A DNA stretch of 64,000 nucleotides, from the NCBI GenBank assembly GCA_019637395.1, contig JAHBVR010000012.1, positions 65,842-129,841 on the forward strand, in the 5' to 3' direction. Each line of letters opens with the position of its first letter. Position 1 is the first letter of the stretch. The notes under the pieces are model-generated. The model was given only the letters and a program-made list of their open reading frames with translations, did no database searches and was not told the DNA's origin. A program made the position numbers and the translations under genes. Of this stretch, positions 1-18,622 are shown one piece after another. This DNA is from Vulcanimicrobiota bacterium. GTDB lineage: Bacteria > Vulcanimicrobiota > Xenobia > Xenobiales > JADMJV01.

Positions 1-1460
1 ACGGACGTCCGTCGACCCAGGCGCAGCGTGAGCCCTTCAAAGAGTTGAATGGTGTTGTCCAGGCGCAAGGTCGCTTCTTGACCGGCACGGACTTCCTGAC
101 CCTGCACTACCGCCATCAAGCCGGCCTGGCGATGCTGATAACGCAACGAGGTTTCACTGACGACCAGGCGGCCGGTCAAAGGTACCAGACGTTCGTCGTC
201 GATCTTGATATCACAGTGCGGTCCGTTGCCAATCAAGTTGGTAGTTCGCCGCAGAGGCAGTTCGCGGGCACCCTGAAAAAGGCTGTAGCTGTTGATTCGC
301 GCCTGCAGAGGCAGATATTCGTAACGAACCACCGTGCGCCCCAGACGGAAACAATCCCCGGAAGCCAATTCCTGGTGATGGCCCGGAGTGACTTCCTCGC
401 CGTTCAGCGGCAAGGTCAACTCACCGTCGAGATTGGTCAAAACCATGCCGTCGTCTTTGTAGGCCAGTTCGCAGTGCACGGCCCCGCGATCGGTCAACTC
501 CACCAGGGTCTTCTGACCGATGCGGCCCAATGTAATAGGGCGCTCCATCTTGCGATGATCCACCCAAAAATGAGTGCCTTTGAGGGGTCCGGCTAGAAAA
601 CGCAGTAAGTGCTGTTCGCCGCGATTCCAGAGGCGATCTCCTTCATGAAAAAGCCCCCCCTGCAACGGGCTGACTTGCTCTCCGGCCAGCAGCCGGGTGC
701 GCAAATCGTTAGCCTGATCGCCAGGTACCAGCATGACCGCCACTCCACCGACCAGCAGCAGACTCTGGCTGCTCAGCAGATTACCGAATTCCGGTCCGGG
801 ATGACGCTGGCGCACGACCCCACCCAGAGGAGTGTCCAGCAGCACCGGACGCGTGCCGGTTTCCGCGCAGGTCACATGAATCTCGGGAGGCTTGTAGAGC
901 AACAGACAACGACTGCTTCCCGCCCCCTGGACATTCAGAGTGGGCTCGAAGGTCTGGACCGCCCCCGGTTCTTGCAGAATCAGCGTTTCCTGCTGAATCG
1001 GATGCAACCGCCCGGCGTCCGGTCCGTTCAAGATCAAGAGTTGATAGGCGGCCTGGGCGGTTTCGCTGGAGGCTACCGGGCGGGGCGGCGGAATACGCGC
1101 CGGAGCGGCTGCTTCAGCCGCCTCGGCCGCTTTGGGAGTGAGACGTAATTGCACCACCAGACTACCCATCTTGATGCGATCGCCCACGTGAATATACTGC
1201 GTGCCCTGCACCACTTTGCCGTTGATCAGGGTGTGGTTGGTGCTGGATCGGTGGGTAAGCAAAAAACGATTGCGCTTGGCGTCCCAGCTCAGAGTCGCGT
1301 GGATGCCTGAGACGGTGGGGTCGGGAAAACTGATCCGCGACGGCGACTCGTGCTTGGAATAAGGGTCTTTACGGCCGAGTTCGATTTGATCGGCCAGCAG
1401 GGGAAACAACTCCCCTTTGCCCTGGCCTTCGACCACCAGTAATTCTAGTTCTGCGCTCAT
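1..1460 (-). CDS. Multi-FHA-domain protein, 3' end truncated by the window edge (more than 486 aa visible)
   Basis: I translated the minus strand from the ATG at 1460..1458 (SD GGGA upstream) codon by codon back to position 1 and found no stop. The N-terminus reads MSAELELLVVEGQGKGELFPL...GRKD...SRISFPDPTVSGIHATLSWDAKRNRFLLTHRSSTNHTLINGKVV, a classic FHA fold. Two further FHA-like modules follow (TLGRIGQKTLVELTDRGAVHCELAYKDDGMVLTNLDGELTLPLNGEEV; LIGNGPHCDIKIDDERLVPLTGRLVV). The plus-strand ORFs at 45..596 and 609..1148 are antisense artefacts. Confidence 0.7.
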   Translation of the reverse strand, partial: MSAELELLVVEGQGKGELFPLLADQIELGRKDPYSKHESPSRISFPDPTVSGIHATLSWDAKRNRFLLTHRSSTNHTLINGKVVQGTQYIHVGDRIKMGSLVVQLRLTPKAAEAAEAAAPARIPPPRPVASSETAQAAYQLLILNGPDAGRLHPIQQETLILQEPGAVQTFEPTLNVQGAGSSRCLLLYKPPEIHVTCAETGTRPVLLDTPLGGVVRQRHPGPEFGNLLSSQSLLLVGGVAVMLVPGDQANDLRTRLLAGEQVSPLQGGLFHEGDRLWNRGEQHLLRFLAGPLKGTHFWVDHRKMERPITLGRIGQKTLVELTDRGAVHCELAYKDDGMVLTNLDGELTLPLNGEEVTPGHHQELASGDCFRLGRTVVRYEYLPLQARINSYSLFQGARELPLRRTTNLIGNGPHCDIKIDDERLVPLTGRLVVSETSLRYQHRQAGLMAVVQGQEVRAGQEATLRLDNTIQLFEGLTLRLGRRTS

Positions 1461-2809: not shown

Positions 2810-3619
2810 TCAGGCTACTTTCTTGTCCTTCTTGAACAGGCCACTGAACCAGCGCACCACCCGTTGCACCAGCCCCAACTTGGCGGGAGGCGCGGCAGTG
2901 GCGGCGGCGACCGCCTTGAAAAAGTCGGGCGGCGGCCCCAGTTCTTCTTCCTCCTCAGCGACGACGGCGGCCTCTTCGGCCACCTCGGCTACGGCAGCGT
3001 AGTCTTCAGCGGCCAGGTCGAGACTGAGAGAAGGCTCCTCCTCGACCGGCATGACCGGCAAAGGAATGGAGGAGCGCTCCAAAGAGCGGAGCATCCACTC
3101 CCCGGAGCGGCGTTCCTGCTCGATGACGCCCTGAAAATCCTCGACGATCGGGTTGATCTCGCGCTGCAGCACGGGATAGGCCACCGGCCCGACCTGGAGC
3201 ACGCCTTCAATAGCGCCCAGACCGGCCTGTTGGGCGGCCCTGATGGAATCGAATCCAGCCCGGCAGGCCGCTTCCTGAGTGGCCACCACGGTAGCCTTGC
3301 CGGCCATCACGATATTTCCCCAGCGCTTGGCCACGGCCAGCACGGCCCGGTGGGAAGCGCGGCGAATGGCCCAATCGGCATCATCCTGGTCGGCGATGCT
3401 CTCGACCACTCCCCGCATCACTTTGCGGGTGACTTCAGACCAATCCGGCTTCTCATGGTCCAGATTCTTGTCGATGAGTTCTTCGACAGCGCCATCCAAC
3501 TCGGCAGGCTCGTTACTTTCAAAAGCCTGGGAGGCGCGCAACCGGGTCATGACCGAGAGCGCGTCGTTCTGCTCGGCACCGACCCGAAAAGAAGGGTCAT
3601 CGGCGGAATGTACTGACAT
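2810..3619 (-). CDS. Hypothetical protein with an acidic Ala/Glu-rich C-terminus
   Basis: ORF track extends to GTG at 3625. An internal ATG at 3619 is preceded by SD GAGGG. It lies 14 nt upstream of the oxidoreductase gene (operon-like). No recognisable domain. Confidence 0.45.
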   Translation of the reverse strand: MSVHSADDPSFRVGAEQNDALSVMTRLRASQAFESNEPAELDGAVEELIDKNLDHEKPDWSEVTRKVMRGVVESIADQDDADWAIRRASHRAVLAVAKRWGNIVMAGKATVVATQEAACRAGFDSIRAAQQAGLGAIEGVLQVGPVAYPVLQREINPIVEDFQGVIEQERRSGEWMLRSLERSSIPLPVMPVEEEPSLSLDLAAEDYAAVAEVAEEAAVVAEEEEELGPPPDFFKAVAAATAAPPAKLGLVQRVVRWFSGLFKKDKKVA

Positions 3620-6146: not shown

Positions 6147-7800
6147 GATGAGCATCAAGCCGATTCTAATTGCCGGTGCAGGCCCGGTAGGACTGACGTT
6201 GGCCTGTGAACTGGTGCGGCACGGCCTTCCCGTGCGCATTGTCGATCGCAATGCTGAACCCAGCGACAAATCCAAAGCGCTGGTGGTCTGGCCCCGCACC
6301 CTGGAGCTATTGGAGAAAGCCGGACTGGTCCAGCGCTTTTTGGAAACCGGCATGCCTCTCCGCGGCCTGAGCATGTATGAAAGCAAAGACAAGCGCATGG
6401 CCCAGGTAACCTTCAGCGACCTGGAAACGCCCTACCCCTTCGTGCTGAGCATTCCCCAAAACGCCACCGAAGCTCTGCTGATCGAGCATCTGGCTGCCCA
6501 GGGGGTCGAGGTGGAGCGCCAGTTAGAGGTGGTCGGCTTCAAGCAGCACGCTACTCACGTGGAGGTCGAATTGCACCACGCCGACGGCCGCAGCGAGACC
6601 ACCACGACTTCCTGGCTGCCGGCTTGCGACGGAGCCCGCAGTAGCGTGCGTCATATTCTGGGAGTTACTTTGGAAGGCGACACGGTGGCCCAGGAATTTG
6701 CCATGATCGATTGTGACGTGGAAGGACTACCGCTTCATGACGAGGTGGTGGCCTACAACACTCCGCACGGCCTGGCCGCCTTCTTTCCGATCCGTGAAAG
6801 GCGCATGCGTGCTTTTATTCTGCGCGATCGGTGCGGGCAGGAGGCCACTCCCTGCCCGCCCACGCTGGAGGAAATGCAAAACGAGCTGATCGCCCGCCGG
6901 CTGGATCACCTCAAGTTGTCCAATCCGGAGTGGTTGGCCGCTTTCCGCATCAACGAGCGCCACGCGAAAAGTTACCGCCACGGACGCGTGCTGCTGGCCG
7001 GCGACGCCGCCCACGTGCACAGCCCTGTCGGCGGCCAGGGCATGAACACCGGCATGCAAGATGCCTTCAACCTGGCCTGGAAACTGGCCCTCATCGAGAA
7101 AGGCAAGATCGCCGCCGAGCCATTCTTGGATTCCTACAGCCAGGAGCGCGAGCCAATCGGAGCGGCCGTGGTTCACAAAACCAGCCGGGCCCGCCAGGCC
7201 ATCACCCTGCGCAATCCACTGGCCAAGGGCCTGCGCAATGCCCTGCTGACTTTCGCTGCCTCGTTTGAGTTCGTGCGCCACAAAATCGCGGAAGAAGCTT
7301 CCGAACTGGCCGTGCGCTACCCGCACAGCCCGCTGAATCGCGAGGTGCACCCCGGCAACGCGGCCTGGCTTTTAGGCCACGGCGTGCACCCCGGAGACCG
7401 CGCACCCGATGGGCATGTGCTGAAGGATGAGAACGCGGCCCATCTTTTCGGTCTGATGGCCGACACACGTTTCCATCTGCTGATTTTATCCGGCCTGGGT
7501 CCGGGAGATCCGCCGGCCGAGGTGGTGGAGTGCGCCCGCTGGGCCAACGCCAGCCTGCACGAACTGGTGGGAGTCCACTGGATCGGCTTCGATCCACATC
7601 ACCTGCCGGCCGCCTTACCCTCGGCCTGGTGGGACGAAGGCAGTCTCATCCACAAGCGCTACGGAGCCGTTCAGCCTACCCTCTACCTGGTCCGGCCGGA
7701 CGGCTACGTGGCTTTCCGCAGTCAGCCGGCGGCCCGCGCCGACCTGGAGAAATACCTGGAGGACATCGGTCTTCTACCGGCCGTCCGCGTAGCGGACTAG
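6147..7800 (+). CDS. FAD-dependent aromatic-ring monooxygenase (PheA/TfdB/UbiH family) with a C-terminal thioredoxin-like domain
   Basis: The real start is the internal ATG at 6147 (MSIKPILIAGAGPVGLTLACELVRHGLPVRIVDR, a GxGxxG Rossmann motif). It also has the DG motif (ACDGARSSVR) and GDAAHVHSPVGGQGMNTGMQDAFNLAWKL. The upstream part of the track ORF is junk. Confidence 0.8.
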
Positions 7801-7901
7801 ATAGCTGCTGAAGAACTCGGCGAAGCCGGGTTCTTCAGTCAGCGACGATCAACAGGTTGTGCCAGGTGGCCGCTCCCAATTGCCCCATTGGCGACCGAGT
7901 G

Positions 7902-9392
7902 TCAAACCGTGTGTTCGGGGCCCGTGACGGTCTGGATACGCCCCTCCAGCCGGGGCGACACGACCTTGTGATGGTGCAGGTACTCAATCAAGGCAACGCC
8001 CTCGGCGGGAGCGTCGTGTGGCTCCACCAGCAATTTGGCCTGGGGCAGCATCTCGTAACCGCAGCCGCCTTTGCGAATAAACTCGCTGCAGGCAAAGGTA
8101 TAGTCCGCCTCGGGGCGCACCGGCTGACCGGCCACCTGCAACTGAAGCACCCGCTGCCCCGGCAGCCTGGCCGGGTCGTAGCGGATTCGCAGGCGGGAAA
8201 CCTGAGGAAAAGAGTTGCTGTCTGCTCCCAGGACGCTCAGCGAATGCTCCACAACCGCCAGAAGCTCTCGACCACTCAGGCGCACTTTTACTACTCCGTT
8301 CTCGTAGGGCAAGATCATCATGGCCTGGCGCCGCGTCAAGACTCCCGCCGGAACCACCCGATCCACACGGATACTACTGCCGGTAATCAAAGCACAGTCG
8401 GCCCCCGTCTGTTCGCGCATGGCGTCGGCCACCAGATTGCCCAGATTGGTTTCCTGCTGGCGGCACACGGAGGAGCGGCCTTCCAACTCGACCGCCACCT
8501 TGACCAGCGGTTCATCAAGTTGGCGCGCCAGCTGCTCCTCGTAGTGAGCAGCCAGCCGGGTCACCCCGGCCTCGGAGGCCACCGACCTGCCCACGGATAG
8601 CCCTTGCCAATCCATTTCCACGATCCGGCCGCCGTCCACTTGCAAGTCGACTTTGCCCAAAATGCGCGCATCACTGCCCCACTTGAAGATAGGGGTGGCG
8701 CCCACCAGCGATTCGGAGGGTTCGTGCTCGTGCCCGCCTAGAATCAAATCCACCGAAACCTCACGAGCTAACCGCTTATCATCGGCCAGACTGAGGTGAG
8801 TCAGAGCCACTACCACCTGAGCTCCCTGGGAACGCAGGCGGGGCACCAGCAGGCGGGCGGCCTCGACTGGGTCCCGAAAGACCACCTCAGAACCACAGTT
8901 GGAAGTTTCGCCGGTATCCGGGGTGAGCAGGCCGAAAATTCCGACTTTGACACCCCCCACATCGCGCATCACATATTCAGGCATCCTGGCAAACGAGCCG
9001 CCGGCTCGGTCCCGCACGTTAGCGGCCAGCCAGGGAAAATGCGATTCTCCCATGCGCTGGCGCAGCACTTCCGGACCGAAGTCGAATTCATGATTGCCCA
9101 GGGTGGCCACATCCAGGTGGATAGCGTTCCACATCTCGATCATCTGGCGGCCGCGAAAGAAGCTGGAGGCCACCGACGGACTCAGCGTATCCCCGGAAAA
9201 GAGAAAAAGGGTATTGGGGTTGGCCGCCACCGCCTGGCGACGCAGAGTTTCCAGGCGCGCGAAGCTCCCCTTGCGGCCGTCGTCCACGCTGGCATATTCA
9301 TAGACATCGTTGAGGTGCAGCAAGGTAATGTGAGTGGGAGCGGCCAGGACCGGGGAAACCAGGCCCAACCCCAGCAAAAACAAGAGCTTCAT
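7902..9392 (-). CDS. Secreted bifunctional metallophosphatase / 5'-nucleotidase family protein
   Basis: Signal peptide MKLLFLLGLGLVSPVLAA. Calcineurin-like metallophosphoesterase motifs (LHLNDVYE, GDTLSPS, GNHEFDFG, GGHEHE) followed by a 5'-nucleotidase C-terminal domain. The ATG lies 1 nt after the upstream DUF2063 stop (TGAAATG). Confidence 0.8.
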   Translation of the reverse strand: MKLLFLLGLGLVSPVLAAPTHITLLHLNDVYEYASVDDGRKGSFARLETLRRQAVAANPNTLFLFSGDTLSPSVASSFFRGRQMIEMWNAIHLDVATLGNHEFDFGPEVLRQRMGESHFPWLAANVRDRAGGSFARMPEYVMRDVGGVKVGIFGLLTPDTGETSNCGSEVVFRDPVEAARLLVPRLRSQGAQVVVALTHLSLADDKRLAREVSVDLILGGHEHEPSESLVGATPIFKWGSDARILGKVDLQVDGGRIVEMDWQGLSVGRSVASEAGVTRLAAHYEEQLARQLDEPLVKVAVELEGRSSVCRQQETNLGNLVADAMREQTGADCALITGSSIRVDRVVPAGVLTRRQAMMILPYENGVVKVRLSGRELLAVVEHSLSVLGADSNSFPQVSRLRIRYDPARLPGQRVLQLQVAGQPVRPEADYTFACSEFIRKGGCGYEMLPQAKLLVEPHDAPAEGVALIEYLHHHKVVSPRLEGRIQTVTGPEHTV

Positions 9393-9393
9393 T

Positions 9394-10230
9394 TCAGGCT
9401 CGAAAAATGCCCCAATCTCCCCACTGATGGAACCAGCGCTGCAATTCCGGCGCCCCCACCGCTGGAAATTTACGCACCACCCGCTCGACCGCCGGCGCCA
9501 GCTTTTTACCGGAGAACAAATCCCTCAACAGATGAAAGCCGGCTTCGGGCAAGACCACCCGATTCATCTGATAGCCCTGGCGCATGATCAGAATGCGCTG
9601 AGGATGCCTGACCGGCCTGCGAGGCTCCAGTTCGTTGTCGACCTGGTGTAGATAATGCGAGACGGGATAGTCAAATTTCAGCAGGCGTGAGGTGGGCCGA
9701 GGTTGCAGAACCAGTTCGTCCCAGCCCTCGGGCGCAAGCGACTGCAACGCTTCCGGATTCAAGGCCGGCACTTCCGGCTCATCGAATACCTGCGCCAGAT
9801 TCAGCTCCAGAACCGCCAACTGGTGTAAGAAAGTCCGGCCACGCAGAGAGCTGCGCGCGATGTAGGCGGGAAAGTGCAGGCCCAGATGGTTGAGAGTCCA
9901 GCTCGAGGAAGGATGTTCCTCCACATAGCTCATGACCAGCGCTTCGAAAGCTTCCGGCCCAAGGGTGTAGGCCACGCCGGGAAAATCGATCTGCAGCGAC
10001 TCGACCATGCGGAGGGGGAACATGCCGCGGTAAATCCAGAGCCGGCTTTCCGGATCGAGTCCGTAGCCTTCTTTGATAAAATCCCCGGTATTGGCCATGG
10101 CTTCCTCCAGGCGATCGGGGGGACAGGTAACCACTTGCTGGAGCCAGGCCTGCTGCTGGCGCAGACCGTGGGCCTGGACCTTTTGCCGGGAAACGCGCAC
10201 CGGAGCGGGAGAACGCTCGGGGAGCACCAT
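9394..10230 (-). CDS. DUF2063 family protein (MbnC/HvfC-like partner of DUF692)
   Basis: It sits immediately downstream of the DUF692 gene and has the DUF2063-type pattern (QQAWLQQVV...RLWIYRGMFPLRMVESLQIDFPGVAYTLGPEAFEALV...). The track ORF extends into the DUF692 coding region. The real start is either ATG 10230 or TTG 10266 (overlapping the DUF692 TGA as TTGGCTGA). Confidence 0.6.
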   Translation of the reverse strand: MVLPERSPAPVRVSRQKVQAHGLRQQQAWLQQVVTCPPDRLEEAMANTGDFIKEGYGLDPESRLWIYRGMFPLRMVESLQIDFPGVAYTLGPEAFEALVMSYVEEHPSSSWTLNHLGLHFPAYIARSSLRGRTFLHQLAVLELNLAQVFDEPEVPALNPEALQSLAPEGWDELVLQPRPTSRLLKFDYPVSHYLHQVDNELEPRRPVRHPQRILIMRQGYQMNRVVLPEAGFHLLRDLFSGKKLAPAVERVVRKFPAVGAPELQRWFHQWGDWGIFRA

Positions 10231-10258
10231 CCCTTTGGCATTCGAGACGACTTCGCGC

Positions 10259-11104
10259 TCAGCCAACTTTGGACACCACCGGCTTCCGGCAGGTGGCCGC
10301 TTTGAGCACTTCGGCGTGGACCACTTCAAACGGGGGAATTTCCGCATCCCACTCCACCATGGTGGTGCGTGCGCCCAGACGCTGATAGCACTGGGTGTAG
10401 AGCGCCCAGACCTCATCGATGACGTGGTCGTCGTGGGTATCGACGATGTAGGTTCCGTTATTGGTGTGGCCGGAGAGGTGGTGGTAAACCACGTGTTCCC
10501 CAGAGATCTTCTGAATGTATTCCTGGGCGGAAAATCCGTGATTGTAGGAGCTGACATAGACATTATTGACGTCGAGCAACAGGCCGCAGTCGGTTTCTTG
10601 GGTAAGAGCGTTGAGGTAATCCCATTCGGTCAACTGATCCTGGGCCCACTCCAGATAGGTTGAGGGATTCTCCAGAACCAGCGGGACCTCCAGATAGTCC
10701 TGGATTACTTTGAGGCGCCGGCTGACGTGCTCCAGGCTTTCCTGAGTCAGCGGCATCGGCAGCAAGTCGTGGGTATTGCGCCCCAGAATGCCGGTCCAGC
10801 AAAGGTGATCGGAAACCCAGCGGGCTTTGACCAGACCGATCAGATTCTTGAGCAGCTTGAGGTATTCGAAGTCGATCGGGTCGGTGCTGCCCACCGAAAG
10901 AGAAACGCCGTGCAGCAACACCGGATAGCGCTCGGCGATCTGCTCGAGCATGTAAATGGGACGGCCACCCGAACCCATGTAGTTCTCGACGATGATTTCA
11001 AAGAAATCGACCTGGGGCCAGTGCTCTAAAATATGACTGTAGTGCACGGTGCGCAGGCCCATGCCAAATCCCAGGTCCGGAAATCCCCACTTGTTGACGA
11101 TCAT
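10259..11104 (-). CDS. DUF692 / UPF0276 family protein (MbnB-like TIM-barrel di-iron enzyme family)
   Basis: N-terminal signature GFGMGLRTVHYSHILEHWPQVDFFEIIVENYM. Length 281 aa. Confidence 0.8.
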   Translation of the reverse strand: MIVNKWGFPDLGFGMGLRTVHYSHILEHWPQVDFFEIIVENYMGSGGRPIYMLEQIAERYPVLLHGVSLSVGSTDPIDFEYLKLLKNLIGLVKARWVSDHLCWTGILGRNTHDLLPMPLTQESLEHVSRRLKVIQDYLEVPLVLENPSTYLEWAQDQLTEWDYLNALTQETDCGLLLDVNNVYVSSYNHGFSAQEYIQKISGEHVVYHHLSGHTNNGTYIVDTHDDHVIDEVWALYTQCYQRLGARTTMVEWDAEIPPFEVVHAEVLKAATCRKPVVSKVG

Positions 11105-11164
11105 CGTGGTTGACTTTTCTTTTACGGGAGGGGTGTCACCTGCGCAAAGCTAATTTCAGCAGCG

Positions 11165-11629
11165 ATGTCGATGATCTGCCAGGCCTGCGGAGTGGAAGCT
11201 CCCACGCGTAAGGTCCAATTTCACAAACACACCGGCATGTTGATCGTGATGCAGCACGGTCACTTCGGGGGAAACTTCTGTAAGCGCTGCATCAACAAAT
11301 ACTTCGCCCAGTTCACCGGCTGGACGGCGCTGGCCGGCTGGTGGGGAATGATCTCGTTTTTCATCACCCCCTGCGTGCTGCTCTGGAACACGGGGCTGTA
11401 TCTGACCACGCTGGGACTGCCTGCTCCGGCGCCGGGTGCCGCTCCACCGCAACTCACCCAGGAAGCCATAGACAAACTGGGCCCATATACCGACCGCCTT
11501 TTCTCTGCTCTGAACGCGGGCCGGCCGCACAAACAGGTGGCCGAAGAGATCGCCGGACTGGCCGGAGTAACTCCCATGCAGGTTCTGCTCTACATCAACG
11601 CCGTCATCGAGGCTTCCCAAGAAGGCTGA
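11165..11629 (+). CDS. Zinc-ribbon membrane protein (hypothetical)
   Basis: N-terminal CxxC...CxxC (CQAC...CKRC) followed by a TM hairpin (WTALAGWWGMISFFITPCVLLW). Good GC3 codon bias. Divergent from the DUF692 operon. Confidence 0.55.
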   Translation: MSMICQACGVEAPTRKVQFHKHTGMLIVMQHGHFGGNFCKRCINKYFAQFTGWTALAGWWGMISFFITPCVLLWNTGLYLTTLGLPAPAPGAAPPQLTQEAIDKLGPYTDRLFSALNAGRPHKQVAEEIAGLAGVTPMQVLLYINAVIEASQEG

Positions 11630-11732
11630 TGTTAACATTGAGGGGAAGAAGGTAAGGTATTTTTAATGCCGTTCACCTTTCCGTAACGAAACCCACCCTC
11701 CCAAAACCCACGTAAGCGTTTAGCATTTCTTT

Positions 11733-13448
11733 ATGAGAGGGTTTCCTGGGTTTATGAACCAGAAGATGGGGGGGGCGCCTACTCCCCCGTCGCTGCCCTC
11801 GCTTTTACCCAAGGCTACTTTGCCGCCCGCTCCCCTGCTGGCTCGCCCTCTGATGGTCGTGCCGGTGGTGCGCCCGGTGACGGTGGCTACCGTCACCCGT
11901 AATCTGCAGGCCGTGCTGGGTCCGCAAACGCCACCGCCCGCTCCCACCACCCAGGGCTTTCCGGGCTTCGTTTCGCGCAACTTCAACCAGGTCAGCCAAC
12001 ATGCTCCCAACGCCAGCAATGCCAACCATCTGAACGGACTGGCCAACCTGTTCCACAAGCCCGCGCCGGAGCGCCGTCAGGCGGAGCGTCCTCCCGCCCC
12101 CACCCGTCCCGCTGTCGTGGCCAAACCGGCCGCCCCGCCCCCCAGGCCTCAAGTGGCCGCCCCCGTCGTAACGAAGAAGCCCGAGGCAGCAGCCAGGGCT
12201 CCGCTACCCACCATCAAGCCCACCGAACTTCCCAAGCCTGCCGTGATGGTCCACCATCAGCCCGCCGCCTCCGCTCCCAAGCCGGCCCAGGCCGCGCCCC
12301 AACCCAAGCCCCCGGCACAGGCGCCCCAACCAGCGCTGCAGCAGGCTCCCAAGTCAACCGCGCTGGAATTGCCCAGGCCGCCCGCGCCCCCCAAAGTCAA
12401 GGAAGAAGGAGACAAGAAGCCCCCGGCGGGATTTTCTCCCCCCGGCAAACCGGCCGCCAACAAAGTGGGGGCCGCCAAAACCGCCAACCCCGCTGCTCCG
12501 GCCACCCAACCCCCATCGGGCGACCTGAAGCCCCCCGCCGAAGCCCCCAAAGTGGAATCCCAAGCTCCCCTGGCCGAGGCCAAACCGGCCCGAGAATTGG
12601 AGCCCACCAAGCTCGCTCAGGAAACCAAAAATCCCGAGCGCGTCGAGGGACCAAGCGCGGTGGCCAAGGCCCCCGCCGCTCAGGCGCCCGCTTCCAGGTT
12701 GGCGCCCCCGGCCAACCTGGAGAAAATCGCCCAGACTCGGCCCGAGACCAGCGAACTCAAGGTCGGCGAAGTCCAACGCCAGCAGGTCAACTCCCAGCAG
12801 GCTCCGATCAGCCGCGAACAAATGGCGCTGGTGCAACAGAACGGCGCGGGCCTATCGGCCGGCGGCGGTTCCGGCCAGGGTGGCGGCGGCGGCCAGGGTC
12901 GCCAGCAGCGCCGCCAGCAAGATGGCGAAGAAGGAGTGGAAGAAATCGGCGCAGCCGAGGCTCTGGGTGGCGACGACCAGGTGCAGTGGTGGCATCTGCG
13001 AGGCGAAGAAACCCTGCGCGCCCTGTCCTCCGAGCTGCGCGAAGCGATGTTCCTGTTGCGCACTCCGCAACGCGCGCTGGGAGTTGACCCCAAGCAGGTG
13101 CGCCAGCAAAAAAGTACCCGCTCCAAGGAGTCTCTCGAGCAACCTCAGGTCCAGGTTCGCGAGCAGGAGCCGCCGCAGCAGGTCCAGAGCGACCAGGTGC
13201 ACTTGGAAGCCGCTGACTTCTGCGCCAGTTGCGGCAGTGAACTGAACGGCCTGGACCCGCGCCGCTGCCCGGCTTGCCTGCGCCAGGCCGCCCTGGCAAC
13301 GCTGGCCGTGCTGGAAAAAGATGGCCGCTTCATCGCTTACCGCGTATTCCTGACCAAGAGCTGCCGACCGGTGGCTTCACGCGCCGTCTACCGCCTGCGC
13401 GATTTCAGCAGCCTGCCCAGCGACGCCTACTGTATCCAGGCCGCATAA
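11733..13448 (+). CDS. Pro/Ala/Lys-rich low-complexity protein with a C-terminal Cys4 zinc ribbon
   Basis: About 400 aa of PAPK/AQAP-type low complexity, then a Gly/Gln-rich segment, a charged coiled region, and CASCGSEL...CPAC at the C-terminus. Start is uncertain (ATG 11733, 11754 or 11766). Confidence 0.5.
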   Translation: MRGFPGFMNQKMGGAPTPPSLPSLLPKATLPPAPLLARPLMVVPVVRPVTVATVTRNLQAVLGPQTPPPAPTTQGFPGFVSRNFNQVSQHAPNASNANHLNGLANLFHKPAPERRQAERPPAPTRPAVVAKPAAPPPRPQVAAPVVTKKPEAAARAPLPTIKPTELPKPAVMVHHQPAASAPKPAQAAPQPKPPAQAPQPALQQAPKSTALELPRPPAPPKVKEEGDKKPPAGFSPPGKPAANKVGAAKTANPAAPATQPPSGDLKPPAEAPKVESQAPLAEAKPARELEPTKLAQETKNPERVEGPSAVAKAPAAQAPASRLAPPANLEKIAQTRPETSELKVGEVQRQQVNSQQAPISREQMALVQQNGAGLSAGGGSGQGGGGGQGRQQRRQQDGEEGVEEIGAAEALGGDDQVQWWHLRGEETLRALSSELREAMFLLRTPQRALGVDPKQVRQQKSTRSKESLEQPQVQVREQEPPQQVQSDQVHLEAADFCASCGSELNGLDPRRCPACLRQAALATLAVLEKDGRFIAYRVFLTKSCRPVASRAVYRLRDFSSLPSDAYCIQAA

Positions 13449-13530
13449 TAGAGGCCTTGGACCGCTTCGGAACCACTGTTAGAGGGAATGGACCTGGATG
13501 GCCAAGGGCGGAGCGGTGGAGGTTGGCTTG

Positions 13531-14234
13531 TGAAGATCGTGCAACTGGCTATCGCCATGCTGATGGGGGTGAGCCTTGGATTGGGCCTGGCGCTGGCGAT
13601 GCTGCAAGCGCAGAACGCCAGGACGGCCCGGAGTCCGCTGAACGCAGCTCAACAGGCCCGCTTGAGTCAGTTGATGCAGCTGAAACAGCGTGGAGGAACC
13701 GCGTTTCTGGGCGATTCACTGACTGAGAACTTCCCCTTGGACCAGTACTTCCAGGACTCGGGACTGGTTAACCTGGGGCTATCGGGGGATACCATCGGCG
13801 GGGCAGGACCCCTGGGCTGTCTGGAACGGCTGGATCAGGGGGTCACGCAGTTGCAGCCGGAGCGAATTGTGTTGCTCATCGGCATCAACGACCTGCTCTT
13901 GAGCCGCTACGAAGACGGCCTGGGGGCGAAGCTGGATCGCTACGAGGCGCTGGAGATCCGCCTGCGCAAAAGGCTGCCGCAGGCTCAACTATGCCTGGTG
14001 TCGCTCCTGCCCACGAGCGGAGAGTTCGCCTACGTCAATCCCGAAATTCTGGTCTTCAATCAGCAAATCCGCCGGCTGGCGGAACGCGACCACGCCCTCT
14101 ACATTGATGCTTACCAGGCCTTTGGCAAGCTGTCACCCGACGACTCCCCGGACGGAATGCACCTCAGCCCACTGGGCTACCGCCGCCTGGCCGAGACGTA
14201 CGCCCGGGCCCTGGGCCTGAAGCTACGCAAGTAG
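13531..14234 (+). CDS. SGNH/GDSL hydrolase family protein (membrane-anchored or secreted)
   Basis: Block I FLGDSLTENF, DGxH-like block DGMHLSPLGY, and an N-terminal hydrophobic anchor. Likely start is GTG 13531 with GGAGG 7 nt upstream (the track ORF begins at 13488). Confidence 0.7.
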
Positions 14235-14299
14235 GCTCGCGCCAAACAGCCTCCCAAGCCAGGTTCGCCTCCAAGCAGGCGGGGTCCGTCCGGGGGTAG

Positions 14300-15634
14300 C
14301 TACCTGCTCAGATAGGAGCGGGCCCAGTCCAGGGCGGCCCGGTCGGCCGGGTTTTCCAAGCCGGGAGTGCTGGTGGCCGATTGCAGGCCGCTGACGATGA
14401 GTTTTCGGAATTCTTGGAAAGCCGGCCCGGGCGCTTGGAGGACGGGCATGTGGTCGAAAGCCGGGCCTTCACCGCGGTTCAGCGCCAGAAAATGGCGGCA
14501 GCCCTCGCTGGCGGGAGGGATTTCCTGGCCGTAAACCTCGCTCAGAACCCAGGCTCGTTTGGCGCCGGTTTCGCCGCCAGCGTGCAAATAAAGATCGGGA
14601 TTCTTTTTGATCTGATCCCAGTTCTTCAGGACGTCAGCGTGGGTCTCGGCGAAGTCTTCGCGCGGGTCCCCCAAACTTCCGTAGGGAGTGACCGAGTCAC
14701 CTTTGCCGAAAGGGGAGTCGGCCCGCTGTGAATAGCCTCCCAGGTTGTCGACCAGATGGCCCATTTCGTGGAAAAGCACCCAACGGGTGGTTTCGCTGGT
14801 ATCGGTCACAGAGCGGCGCAGCACGGCGGTGGGATAGCCGGCGAAAACCTGACCGTTGGTAACAGTCTCCGGTCCCTCGGGCAAAGGGGCGGATTCCAAC
14901 ACCACCAGACTGCAAGCTTCCAGCGCCTTCGGGCAGCGCTCCTTGACATAAGAAAGCGCCTGGCTGAGGTGCTCGCGTTCGCGCTCGTTGCGACATCCGG
15001 AGATCTGGATTCCTTCGTGAGCAAAGCTTTCTGAAGAGGTAGCGGAGGCCAGCACGGTGGCCACCACGTTGCCGGAGAGCTGCTGGAGCTTCTCGGTATC
15101 AAAGTCCTGAAGAATGCTCATCAGAGCCGGGCTGAGCGGCCCGGCTCCGCTGCTGGCACTGAGAAAACTCAAGTATTCACCCTGCCGGGCCAGGCCCTTG
15201 GCGCCTTCGGAGACGGACAGACTCTTCAAATCGAAGACGCCGTTGACCCGACTCAACTCGACCTGGGAAGGTGCGTTTGGGTTAGCGCCCAGACTGCGTT
15301 CAAACAGACTCAAGGCGGTCGACTCCACCACCAACGGTTCCAGTTCCACAAACATTGAACCCCAGGCGGACTGAGTCATCTGCTCTCCCGCCCTGGCCAC
15401 TATCTGGCGGGCCTTTTCGCGAAAAGGATCGGCCGGGTTCTTCAACTTTTCGAGGGGAGCCGGTTCGGGCTCGGCCATCGGCCCATAGGCAGTATTCACC
15501 GGCACGCTGGCAGCCAGACGTTGGGCCGTCAGCATGACATGGTCAGCCGGCATCTCCTCCGCTACCGGCGCTACGGAGCGAGGGATGGGACGCATCGTCG
15601 GGCCGTTCAGCGGACCACGAATGGGATCGATCAC
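14300..15634 (-). CDS. Putative zinc metalloprotease (HExxH motif) / hypothetical
   Basis: HEMGHLVD motif plus a downstream acidic EDFAE. No other family assignment possible by eye. Confidence 0.45.
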   Translation of the reverse strand: MIDPIRGPLNGPTMRPIPRSVAPVAEEMPADHVMLTAQRLAASVPVNTAYGPMAEPEPAPLEKLKNPADPFREKARQIVARAGEQMTQSAWGSMFVELEPLVVESTALSLFERSLGANPNAPSQVELSRVNGVFDLKSLSVSEGAKGLARQGEYLSFLSASSGAGPLSPALMSILQDFDTEKLQQLSGNVVATVLASATSSESFAHEGIQISGCRNEREREHLSQALSYVKERCPKALEACSLVVLESAPLPEGPETVTNGQVFAGYPTAVLRRSVTDTSETTRWVLFHEMGHLVDNLGGYSQRADSPFGKGDSVTPYGSLGDPREDFAETHADVLKNWDQIKKNPDLYLHAGGETGAKRAWVLSEVYGQEIPPASEGCRHFLALNRGEGPAFDHMPVLQAPGPAFQEFRKLIVSGLQSATSTPGLENPADRAALDWARSYLSR

Positions 15635-15676
15635 CCCCTGAGTTTCGCGCTCCTTCGATGCAGGCCTCTTCCCTCG

Positions 15677-16705
<1,029 letters not shown>

Positions 16706-16872
16706 TTACGAGATGCGCTTAGCATAGTCTCGTCCGGATCCATGGTGGTAGACCATTTCCGCAGGCACCTTGCCTATTCGTGCAACGAGGTGTCACGTGG
16801 GGGCAATCGCGCAAGCACGATCAGCCGCTCTAAAACGCGGGAAAGTCGGGGGTCACGCGGAATGCCTGGTGG

Positions 16873-17310
16873 ATGAAAGCCGCGCGAATCTTTTTGAGCC
16901 TGGCCTGGTTCGGTATCGCCCCATTGTGGGCGACCGAGGGGAATGACTGCTTTACCCGGTGGGCCTTTCACTACGGCGTGATACTCTCCATGGCGCTGGC
17001 CTTTTTTTCGGGCTGGCTCTACCATTGGGTGGGTTACCACTTGGTGTCGTTCCAGCACCGGAAGAACGCGGCCTATCTGAGCGCGCTGATCTTTGTGCCG
17101 CTGCTCGCTTTGCTCGGGTCGGGCGGGCTCAGCGAAATCTGGGCCAGTCAGGCAGATCCCGATTACTATCGGCGCAACGGCGTCGGTCCGGTGAATATCG
17201 TAGCTCTGTTGGCTCAATCCGCGGGAATCTTCATGAGCTGGTTTCATTATTGGAGAAGTCGAAAGCGCACGGAAGGCGCGTTGTCCTGGGTGGATTCCGA
17301 GAGCCTTTGA
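16873..17310 (+). CDS. Hypothetical membrane protein
   Basis: Four predicted TM segments and good codon bias. Confidence 0.4.
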   Translation: MKAARIFLSLAWFGIAPLWATEGNDCFTRWAFHYGVILSMALAFFSGWLYHWVGYHLVSFQHRKNAAYLSALIFVPLLALLGSGGLSEIWASQADPDYYRRNGVGPVNIVALLAQSAGIFMSWFHYWRSRKRTEGALSWVDSESL

Positions 17311-17442
17311 GCAAAGCGGGTTCTAGCCGCTCCAGGCCGTGGGGCTCGTAAGGTGGACTTGACGGCAAATAAATTTCGTCGTAAATTACATTTACACAGT
17401 TAACAGACAGAACCCCATCGTCGAGACGAAAGGTCACATCAG

Positions 17443-18012
17443 ATGCTCCTCCTACCTCTCGGACTTTCCGTTTACGCTCTGGGTCTGGGCGCGGCCTCGC
17501 GTTACTTTTTCGGCAAATACCTGGTTTACGGTCACCATCCGGGAATACTCTACCTGGCGGGGTTGGTACTCAGCCTCTGTCTTTGTCCCTGGGGTGCGCA
17601 GACTGTCTATGCTCGATTCTGGTCGGTGCTGGCCAGCTTCTTCACCGCCTTGACCGCCACGCTCACAGCCTTTCTTTACCTGGTGATGAAGCGCAACTAC
17701 GAGCGCTACTGGTTTCTCGTCATCGTCCTGGCCGTCTGCGTCGGAGTTCCCCTGCTGGCCCTGGCGGTGACCTCCCCAGTGTTGCTTTTCGTTTATCATA
17801 TGGCCCTGGCTCTCGGTCGCCGCTACTTCCCGCTGCTGGCCCTGGAAGGACTCGTGTTTTTGGGCCTGTGCCTTTTCCGCATCTACGGGGCCTACCATCC
17901 AGAATACGAACTCATGGCCTTCCGAGCCTTTGGCTACTGGTGTATTAGCTATAGTCTCACCCTGCTCGGTCTGGCCCTCAGCTACTACCTCCACCCCCAC
18001 AAGCCGACTTAG
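17443..18012 (+). CDS. Hypothetical polytopic membrane protein
   Basis: Six hydrophobic segments. A candidate promoter TTGACG-17-TAAATT lies at ~17362-17396. Ends with a TAG stop at 18010-18012. Confidence 0.45.
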   Translation: MLLLPLGLSVYALGLGAASRYFFGKYLVYGHHPGILYLAGLVLSLCLCPWGAQTVYARFWSVLASFFTALTATLTAFLYLVMKRNYERYWFLVIVLAVCVGVPLLALAVTSPVLLFVYHMALALGRRYFPLLALEGLVFLGLCLFRIYGAYHPEYELMAFRAFGYWCISYSLTLLGLALSYYLHPHKPT

Positions 18013-18180
18013 GGCTCGGCGCTTGATAAGGTGGGCGTTTCGGCGCCAGATGGCGTGAGGAGGAACGACAAGGCGTATCGGGTTATCGGTGCGGAGTTGC
18101 GACGCAGCGGGTGGGGATGGATCTGGCGCCCAAACGTCTGAGTTATTAAGCGACGGGTCCTTAACTGAAGGAGGACCTAG
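18013..18180 (+). repeat. Conserved intergenic element, copy A (candidate 3'-UTR sRNA or miniature repeat); inverted partner at 48122..48296
   Basis: The ~97-nt core at 18064..18160 is ~98% identical to the reverse complement of 48136..48236. The flanks are partly conserved. The element starts directly at the TAG stop of the upstream gene. Confidence 0.6.
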
Positions 18181-18186
18181 GAATCG

Positions 18187-18544
18187 CTTGATTTGGCCGA
18201 TAGCCAGCTCACTGATTGGGCTTCTAATCTTGGGAGCCTGTGGGAAAGAACCGCCTAAACGTTTCGGCAATAAAGTGACTGCCTATGGCGCTCCGGAATG
18301 CACCAGCAATCTGAAGAATATCGGCACCGCTTTAGAAATGTATAAAATGGATCACAGCCTGGCTCAGCTGGTTCCTCAATATTTCAAGGCCCTGCCCACC
18401 TGCCCCGCCGTGCAAAGTGACACGTATCCGGCAAGTTACCAACTGAAAGGCAGCCGCTACGAGTTTTGCTGCCGGGGTAACAACCACGACTTCGGAGGTG
18501 ATCGGCCGTCCTATTCCAGCGACGGAGGGTGCATCACCCGCTAG
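18187..18544 (+). CDS. Small Cys-rich lipoprotein (hypothetical)
   Basis: TTG start preceded by AGGA. Lipobox LILGAC. Six Cys in ~120 aa. Confidence 0.45.
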
Positions 18545-18622
18545 CGAGGACGCTCGCACGGTAACCCTGGCCCTCCAATCCTTGGCTGGCTTAAGTCATA
18601 CCTCAGAAAAGCCTCAGCCAAT

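Follow-up and report, generated by a model that had tools for sequence, protein, structure and literature searches.

A bufferin maturase pair without a linked precursor gene in a Vulcanimicrobiota bacterium

Bufferin maturation is best described for the Buf2 system of Caulobacter vibrioides (bufA2-bufB2-bufC2, CCNA_03001-02999; Leprevost et al., 2024, PMC11626156), and the conversion of Cys to 5-thiooxazole and the binding of copper are known biochemically from Caulobacter only (PMC11626156). In that system, BufB and BufC are both required for thiooxazole formation and suffice for it, and the signal peptide is not needed (PMC11626156). A sizeable share of Buf1 and Buf2 precursor genes are unlinked to MNIO genes, and MNIOs from other loci may act on their products (Antoine et al., 2025, PMC12452194); for such stand-alone precursors, including those of Legionella pneumophila subsp. 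fraseri, the presumed maturase is an MNIO/DUF2063 pair located elsewhere in the genome (PMC12452194). In the bufferin literature, modification in trans is an assumption (PMC12452194, PMC11626156). Two other described systems are the HvfB/HvfC pair of non-typeable Haemophilus influenzae, which acts on the DUF2282 protein HvfA (PMC11252979), and the MbnB/MbnC pair of methanobactin biosynthesis, in which an iron enzyme of the MNIO superfamily (PF05114) and a partner protein act on Cys.

The window (the whole 64-kb stretch of DNA that was analysed) contained three tightly coupled genes on the minus strand, namely bufB, bufC, and a gene encoding a secreted Metallophos/5'-nucleotidase-like protein. 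bufB (10259..11104, minus strand) was predicted to encode a 281-aa MNIO (DUF692) bufferin maturase that matched PF05114 (E=1e-103) and passed the curated NCBIfam cut-off for BufB (NF050167 MNIO_BufB, 342.3 bits vs. 310). Its scores against the NCBIfam HvfB, ApyH, ChrH, and MbnB models were all far under the respective cut-offs, with 254.5 bits (cut-off, 360) for HvfB and 51.8 bits (cut-off, 325) for MbnB (TIGR04159). The DUF2063 partner, encoded by bufC (9394..10266, minus strand), matched PF09836 at 54.4 bits (cut-off, 27.2) and reached 44 bits with the HvfC model NF050145 (cut-off, 142). The initial annotation had placed a DUF692 gene at these same positions and named profile searches as a possible refutation of both memberships; the two memberships were confirmed, whereas the framing of the pair as MbnBC- or HvfBC-type was not. 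On the basis of these scores, the pair is assigned to the BufB/BufC branch of the bufferins, with a precursor of the BufA2 type (Buf_6/12Cys) and neither MbnA nor DUF2282/HvfA.

As in Caulobacter Buf2, a BufB-equivalog MNIO gene was directly followed at its 3' side by a DUF2063 gene, no DoxX gene was present, and the precursors of the lineage were Cys-rich proteins of the BufA2 type carrying a Sec signal. The locus differed from Caulobacter Buf2 in that it contained no bufA 5' of bufB, which breaks an otherwise strict bufABC order, in the long BufA2 proteins of the lineage (136-205 aa, with at least 12 Cys rather than 6), and in an extra secreted metallophosphoesterase gene that was coupled to bufC. 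HvfB/HvfC share the two-protein architecture, the Cys-directed chemistry, and a Sec-exported substrate with this locus. However, the window proteins fell short of both equivalog cut-offs (254 vs. 360 bits for HvfB, 44 vs. 142 bits for HvfC), the lineage substrate was BufA2 and not DUF2282, and the Cys-containing ORFs of the window gave no DUF2282 match, as a Buf1-type/HvfABC system would require. MbnB/MbnC differs, as the partner in the window was DUF2063 and not MbnC, no MbnB equivalog and no MbnA-like leader/core peptide were present, and a bufferin is a small periplasmic protein, in contrast to a secreted chalkophore. By homology to the characterized proteins of Caulobacter, BufB would act as a multinuclear non-heme iron oxidase and, together with BufC, which carries an RRE-like partner domain, turn Cys of the Sec-exported BufA2 precursor into 5-thiooxazoles; the mature periplasmic bufferin would chelate copper.

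The start of bufC was set by gene callers at ATG 10230 (278 aa). An in-frame TTG at 10266 gives an 8-nt overlap with the bufB stop and is the likely start; the resulting junction, GTTGGCTGA, was conserved in the window, the sister genome (L003), L008, and L016, as was the peptide AEREVVSNAK. The TGA of bufC (9396..9394) was followed by a single base and then by ATG 9392 of the 496-aa nucleotidase-like gene (TGAaATG). Both junctions agreed with what had been read earlier, namely a DUF2063 start that overlaps or abuts the DUF692 stop and a nucleotidase ATG 1 nt past the DUF2063 stop.

A precursor gene was not detected in the window. Screening of the whole 64 kb for signal peptides with Cys and, in six frames, for Cys density yielded only off-frame noise, tblastn with the BufA2 of L005 gave a best match of E=0.09, and four other BufA2 proteins gave no match at E<=1e-3. 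None of the 76 window ORFs with at least 4 Cys matched the BufA2, DUF2282, or RiPP-precursor models of NCBIfam and Pfam, and all three positive controls of this search were matched. An MbnA-like ORF was likewise absent from the window. The report of no DUF2282-like or small signal-peptide ORF within about 2 kb was therefore borne out and extends to the entire window; the absence of a DUF2282 ORF is not a relevant test, because the precursor of this lineage is of the BufA2 type. Short RiPP precursors are often missed, and those of methanobactins are only 20-30 aa long, which would leave room for a peptide that is very short or free of Cys, or for a non-canonical ORF, in the spacer upstream of bufB or nearby. 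Such a local precursor is extremely improbable, as the only ORFs of 20 aa or more that the spacer contained on the bufB strand overlapped coding genes, the relatives all use a BufA2 of 136-205 aa, and the enzyme is a BufB equivalog that scored 52 bits with MbnB (cut-off, 325).

In eight relatives (L005, L008, L014, L016, L010, L011, and L012 among them), whose BufB proteins were 60-92% identical to that of the window, a bufA2 gene encoding a Sec signal and at least 12 Cys was located directly 5' of bufB. These precursors were 136-205 aa long, and LMSAVMAGLLLGGAQ serves as a signal-peptide signature of BufA2-like genes; the BufA2 of L005 (205 aa) scored 82 bits with NF050166 (cut-off, 60). In a neighbor-joining tree of BufB and BufC, (((window,L003)99,L016)97,L008)100,(L005,L014)100, only the window and L003 had no bufA2, thus indicating one loss, which would have occurred in their common ancestor and affected the operon-linked bufA2 that is normally located directly 5' of bufB. 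An orphan bufBC pair was also present at L007. Alignment with L016 and L008 revealed that the entire bufA2 segment, which spans ~810 nt in L008 with its upstream region and the bufA2-bufB hairpin, was gone from the window and from L003. The corresponding site in the window is a spacer of 60 nt (11105..11164), exactly the gap that the initial annotation had described between bufB and a divergent gene for a 154-aa CxxC membrane protein. Local alignment scores of the spacers (60 nt in the window, 82 nt in L003) against five bufA2 regions were equaled by 8-349 of 500 shuffles, and a scar is therefore not claimed. MAFFT had set CCCGTAAAAGAAAAGT of the window beneath the final bufA2 codons, and this candidate remnant was rejected because the shuffles did not support it. 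Two assemblies from separate sequencing runs were 100% identical to the window across the junction, which is therefore no assembly artefact.

The loss of bufA2 also removed the upstream region, which is the expected site of the operon promoter. A sigma-70 scan of 7700..11800 identified no promoter and likewise found none 5' of bufA2 in L008 and L017, so that the scan is uninformative for this phylum. The missing precursor and promoter region, the lack of a promoter-like site in the 60-nt spacer by a sigma-70-tuned scan that may not suit the phylum, and the orphan pair of L007 would be expected if bufB and bufC were relics, either decaying after the loss of bufA2 or carried along with the nucleotidase-like gene. 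The coding sequences make this very doubtful. Both ORFs were intact in two lineages at a near-saturated dS of ~1.4, the overlapping start of bufC was conserved, and, of 82 columns with at least 97% conservation among 120 homologs, BufB of the window retained 81. Between the window and the sister genome (dS ~1.3-1.4), dN/dS was 0.033 for bufB and 0.108 for bufC, and the pair L005 and L014, which retained bufA2, gave 0.026 and 0.138, respectively. Constraint on the orphaned genes was therefore no weaker than that on genes accompanied by bufA2, and strong purifying selection on bufB and bufC persists.

A DNA-pattern scan of species-representative genomes revealed a stand-alone bufA2 in the sister genome (L017; 60..539, 159 aa), on contig JAFKGI010000003.1, with its own 16-bp terminator; the bufBC locus of the same genome (L003) is on JAFKGI010000012.1. 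The L017 protein scored 50 bits with NF050166, which is under the cut-off of 60 (E=2.5e-13); the signal peptide and 12 invariant Cys were common to the stand-alone and the operon-encoded BufA2 proteins. The L017 sequence begins 59 nt 5' of bufA2, and the side further upstream is known only through synteny with L013 and L018. The outgroup genome SZAS-1 harbored both a full operon (L016) and a syntenic stand-alone copy (L018/L013). In a protein collection, two homology searches and an exact look-up returned three close BufA2 clusters, none of which came from the samples of the window, and the L017 protein was absent from the collection as well, which makes the lack of a match from the window organism uninformative.

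Purifying selection on bufBC, the stand-alone bufA2 of the sister genome, and the presence of both copies in the outgroup suggest that the locus is probably one half of an ordinary Buf2-type bufferin system that has been split, with a maturase locus that lost its own precursor gene and a stand-alone bufA2 encoded in trans. The second, monocistronic bufA2 would have predated the loss of the operon-linked copy, and, because this copy was already in the lineage, BufB and BufC may have been kept for modification in trans. The organism of the window would then carry its own stand-alone bufA2 outside the 64 kb. The initial annotation had considered an orphan pair acting in trans, an unrecognized substrate, or a different partner, and the first of these is the one backed by the comparative evidence. 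A layout with the precursor away from the maturase has already been described for bufferins, and the window presents no challenge to current understanding. The stand-alone genes at L017 and L018 resemble the published stand-alone precursors in being located away from the MNIO gene, whereas the window represents the reciprocal half, a maturase pair without a precursor that can be traced back to the loss of the linked copy (compare PMC12452194). With this traceable loss and another copy kept elsewhere in the lineage, the locus is a caution for RiPP genome mining against taking every MNIO/DUF2063 pair that has no neighboring precursor as a sign of a new substrate class. The locus also offers a natural test case for BufB/BufC serving a trans-encoded precursor, and the known range of bufferins is widened to Eremiobacterota/Vulcanimicrobiota genomes with long BufA2 proteins of at least 12 Cys.

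The gene downstream of bufC (7902..9392, minus strand) encodes a 496-aa protein with an N-terminal signal peptide, a Metallophos N-terminal domain (PF00149, E=1.3e-11), and a 5_nucleotid_C domain (PF02872, E=1.4e-35). Its best PDB match was the Thermus 5'-nucleotidase 2z1a (E=8e-55), and all NCBIfam equivalog scores were far under their cut-offs (165 vs. 600 bits for UshA). Motif I reads D-V-Y in place of D-x-H, invariantly among the orthologs, and GGDG of the C-terminal domain is replaced by GGCG; given these non-canonical motifs and the UshA score, the nucleotidase activity is putative. D-V-Y does not mark the enzyme as unusual, because it is common in the nearest subfamily of ~500-aa proteins (43 of 81 motif-matching representatives). 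The gene followed bufC in the window, L003, L016, L005, and L014, and was absent from L008, L010, L011, L012, L007, and all of the more distant bufABC loci. It is thus an accessory add-on of a narrow clade that was lost in one relative (L008). The gene was acquired downstream of bufC at the root of this small clade, and its product would be a co-expressed periplasmic accessory rather than the substrate.

The absence of a local precursor can also be read as a switch of substrate, in which BufB and BufC modify the nucleotidase-like enzyme, the 154-aa CxxC neighbor, or an unrecognized protein. Like bufferins, the enzyme is exported, its gene remained translationally coupled to bufC in the window, L003, L005, and L014, and the protein contains two invariant Cys (C310 and C435) in addition to the Cys of GGCG, where relatives have GGDG. 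Published work also regards large proteins as possible MNIO targets (PMC12452194). However, three relatives (L016, L005, and L014) carry both bufA2 and the nucleotidase-like gene, and L008 lacks the latter, so that this gene did not replace the precursor; moreover, the Cys of GGCG is Val in the L014 ortholog. BufA2-like Cys motifs were found in neither the nucleotidase-like nor the 154-aa protein, and no accelerated substitution, as might follow from a new substrate, was evident in BufB (dN 0.047 relative to the sister genome). A switch of substrate is thus improbable. A related idea, that the maturase and the phosphoesterase form a functional module in this small clade, either because BufB/BufC also modify Cys of the enzyme or because bufferin and the secreted dimetal phosphoesterase cooperate in the periplasm, is likewise improbable. 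In the case of cooperation, bufferin might, for example, protect or metallate the phosphoesterase under copper stress; in either case, the operon would represent a new functional module and not an accident of gene order.

The 154-aa CxxC...CxxC membrane protein, encoded divergently from bufB (11165..11629, plus strand), matched no family in Pfam or NCBIfam. Its gene occurred together with bufA2 in L008 and L016; in L014 it was located three genes from buf, and in L005 it was absent within 10 kb. Given this inconsistent synteny and the lack of a family, the protein was rejected as a substrate or regulator. The earlier proposal that either the nucleotidase or this Cys-rich neighbor had become the partner of the pair is not consistent with the co-occurrence of both genes with bufA2, and it is likely that neither protein is the substrate. 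The partner of the 154-aa gene is instead a gene on the other strand for a proline-rich protein of ~570 aa, and these two genes are conserved as a pair separately from the buf genes.

Three genes were tightly packed on the minus strand of the window, namely bufB (10259..11104), encoding a 281-aa MNIO (DUF692) bufferin maturase, bufC (9394..10266), encoding its DUF2063 partner, and a gene for a secreted 496-aa protein with a signal peptide and Metallophos and 5_nucleotid_C domains (5'NT-like; 7902..9392). One base separated the bufC stop from the 5'NT-like ATG (TGAaATG), and 60 bases lay between bufB and a divergent plus-strand gene (11165..11629) encoding a 154-aa CxxC...CxxC protein with one membrane segment and no family match in Pfam and NCBIfam profile searches. 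The initial annotation had read this layout accurately, and its assignment of the two proteins to DUF692 and DUF2063 was upheld by PF05114 (MbnB_TglH_ChrH; E=1e-103) and PF09836 (54 bits, cut-off 27). Gene callers placed the bufC start at ATG 10230 on the identical public contigs; starting instead from the in-frame TTG at 10266 gives an 8-nt overlap with the bufB stop, and bufC was taken as 9394..10266 because this TTG junction and its encoded peptide AEREVVSNAK were conserved in relatives. The window junction was 100% identical in two assemblies from separate sequencing runs. Two public contigs identical to the window, from different runs (L001 and L002), both ended exactly at window position 7844, just past the 5'NT-like stop, possibly because the assembly breaks there.

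The window MNIO passed the NCBIfam BufB equivalog (NF050167; 342 bits vs. a cut-off of 310) and clearly failed the other equivalogs (score/cut-off: HvfB 254/360, ApyH 94/400, ChrH 53/600, and MbnB 52/325), and the DUF2063 protein scored 44 bits, far below the HvfC equivalog cut-off of 142; the pair therefore belongs to the bufferin branch of the MNIO superfamily. Within this branch, BufB and BufC act on a Sec-exported precursor whose cysteines they turn into 5-thiooxazoles, yielding a periplasmic copper binder (PMC11626156). The gene order bufABC is strict, and further conserved genes beside buf clusters occur in extremely low proportions (Antoine et al., 2025, PMC12452194).

The precursor that the initial annotation had reported missing was indeed absent across the 64 kb. 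All window ORFs of 35-160 aa were screened for signal peptides and cysteines, and cysteine density was screened in all six frames; both screens returned off-frame noise only. The best tblastn match to the BufA2 of the relative L005 had E=0.09, and BufA2 proteins from four further relatives gave none at E<=1e-3. When all 76 window ORFs that measured 40-260 aa and contained four or more cysteines were scanned with NCBIfam and Pfam, BufA2 matches were confined to the three BufA2 positive controls (0/76 window ORFs), and neither DUF2282 nor other precursor families were matched.

The closest BufB homologs were annotated as Eremiobacteraeota, Vulcanimicrobiota or Xenobia. A bufA2 gene stood upstream of bufB in isolate SZAS-1 (L016; BufB 92%), L008/L009 (88%; 166 aa), L005 (85%; 205 aa), L014 (85%; 196 aa), and L010, L011, and L012 (75-60%; 136-174 aa). 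These upstream proteins carried a Sec signal peptide and 12-22 cysteines in CKGxNxCKGKGGC-like repeats, and that of L005 passed the curated BufA2 model (NF050166; 82 bits vs. a cut-off of 60). The 5'NT-like gene was present in L016, L005, and L014, and absent from L008/L009, L010, L011, and L012. The sister-genome locus L003 (GCA_017307785.1; BufB 92%) shared the window's layout, with an 82-nt spacer, a 5'NT-like gene, and no upstream bufA2. A bufB-bufC pair of Candidatus Xenobia (L007, 9125..10883; BufB 63%) had neither bufA2 within 20 kb nor a 5'NT-like gene; thus, orphan maturase pairs recur in this phylum. Divergent from the L007 pair lies a gene for a 133-aa protein that carries a C4 zinc finger of the ClpX type. 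In L005, genes for an ECF sigma factor and a zf-HC2-type anti-sigma factor (8524..9284) lay directly upstream of the Buf2-type operon; sigma/anti-sigma genes were present in Buf1 and absent from Buf2 clusters in a 2025 survey (PMC12452194). A strong hairpin between bufA2 and bufB in L008 (7941..7975; 15-bp stem and T-run) and L016 (about 3005..3050) suggests that the precursor transcript is in excess and that the maturase genes are reached by read-through.

Gene content was mapped on a neighbor-joining tree of BufB and BufC, (((window,L003)99,L016)97,L008)100,(L005,L014)100, with L010, L011, L007, and L012 outside. On this mapping, the window and L003 owe the absence of the operon-linked bufA2 to one loss in their shared ancestor; the 5'NT-like gene would have been gained behind bufC at the base of the six-member clade and later lost in L008. 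The 5'NT-like identities matched the tree (window-L003 85%, L005-L014 75%, and 64-67% between groups). Only from within bufB onward was the window homologous to L005 or L008, and alignment showed the whole bufA2 segment to be missing from the window; in L008, it comprises about 810 nt, including the upstream region, bufA2, and the 15-bp hairpin terminator. What looked like the remains of the bufA2 3' end in the window spacer aligned no better than shuffled controls and was rejected. Farther along, a segment of about 5.1 kb (13458..18604), shared with L001, had no counterpart in the syntenic stretches of L003 and L008 and represents an indel in otherwise conserved synteny; it contained genes for a GDSL lipase (13488..14234), a 444-aa protein of no family (14300..15634, minus), and an aldo-keto reductase (15677..16696, minus), plus small ORFs.

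The proposal that the co-transcribed nucleotidase or the cysteine-rich neighbor had become the new partner of BufB and BufC was not supported. The 5'NT-like gene coexisted with bufA2 in three genomes (L016, L005, and L014) and was dispensable in L008. Its C-terminal domain reads GGCG in place of the family GGDG, and this cysteine is not conserved because L014 reads GGVG. The protein is an accessory restricted to one clade, and it is very improbable that maturase and phosphoesterase form one functional module. "Nucleotidase" is a family label only for this 496-aa protein: every NCBIfam equivalog model failed, and motif I carries D-V-Y in place of D-x-H (LHLNDVYE, Tyr for His), invariant among orthologs and common in the nearest subfamily of about 500 aa (43 of 81 representatives with a recognizable motif). 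The 154-aa gene adjoined bufA2 in L008 and L016 (on the minus strand in both), lay three genes off in L014, and was absent near L005; the protein is therefore a neighbor of the buf genes by its variable position, not a partner. It was always followed by a Pro/Ala/Lys-rich protein of about 570 aa with a C-terminal zinc ribbon (window 11733..13448, plus; weak double-zinc-ribbon match, PF12773, E=0.004). This pair, of which the 154-aa member is a zinc-ribbon-like single-pass membrane protein, also occurred in L003, L008, and L014.

The orphaned genes remained under constraint. Between the window and L003, both without linked bufA2, dN/dS was 0.033 for bufB, 0.108 for bufC, and 0.071 for the 5'NT-like gene, at a dS of about 1.3-1.4 that leaves synonymous sites nearly saturated; the values for L005 vs. 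L014, which kept bufA2, were 0.026, 0.138, and 0.120, respectively. Window BufB retained 81 of the 82 columns with at least 97% conservation among 120 homologs. It is therefore unlikely that bufB and bufC are a relic, and a substrate of the pair must still exist.

The lineage-specific signal-peptide motif AVMAGLL[LF]GGAQ was back-translated and scanned across species-representative genomes, yielding five loci. One of these, L017 (contig JAFKGI010000003.1), comes from the genome that also contains L003 (contig JAFKGI010000012.1) and encodes a 159-aa BufA2-like protein (60..539; NF050166 E=2.5e-13, 50 bits, slightly below the cut-off of 60). It was followed by a terminator with a 16-bp stem, a convergent gene for a secreted EF-hand protein, an esterase-like gene, and an FHIPEP-domain gene, with no MNIO or DUF2063 gene downstream of bufA2 in L017. 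SZAS-1 holds a syntenic stand-alone bufA2 (L018/L013) as well as its complete operon. Stand-alone and operon copies shared the signal peptide and twelve invariant cysteines; therefore, the stand-alone bufA2 is older than the loss of the linked copy. The sister of the window organism keeps only the stand-alone bufA2, and phylogenetic bracketing makes the same most likely for the window organism, beyond the 64 kb seen. No stand-alone BufA2 from the window organism was matched in the protein collection, which is uninformative because the L017 protein is missing there as well.

We conclude with high confidence that the window carries a bufferin maturase pair left without its precursor when the linked bufA2 was lost, and the pair probably serves a stand-alone BufA2 in trans, as one of the readings in the initial annotation had it. 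Buf1 and Buf2 precursor genes without MNIO linkage make up "sizeable proportions", some being genuine single-gene units, and modification by MNIOs encoded elsewhere has been proposed for them; almost no genomes have Buf2 precursors without MNIO and partner genes (PMC12452194). Whereas those are precursors unlinked to an MNIO, the window locus is the reciprocal half, maturases without a linked precursor, and represents a split Buf2-type bufferin system of a kind already known; the words "orphan" and "nucleotidase" are absent from Antoine et al. (2025, PMC12452194). The gene convergent with the stand-alone bufA2 (L017 594..989, minus; also in L018 and L013) encodes a 131-aa secreted protein with EF-hand-like DxNxDG loops. 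Buf_EGKC|EF-hand_5 fusion proteins have been described (PMC12452194), so this adjacency may not be accidental.
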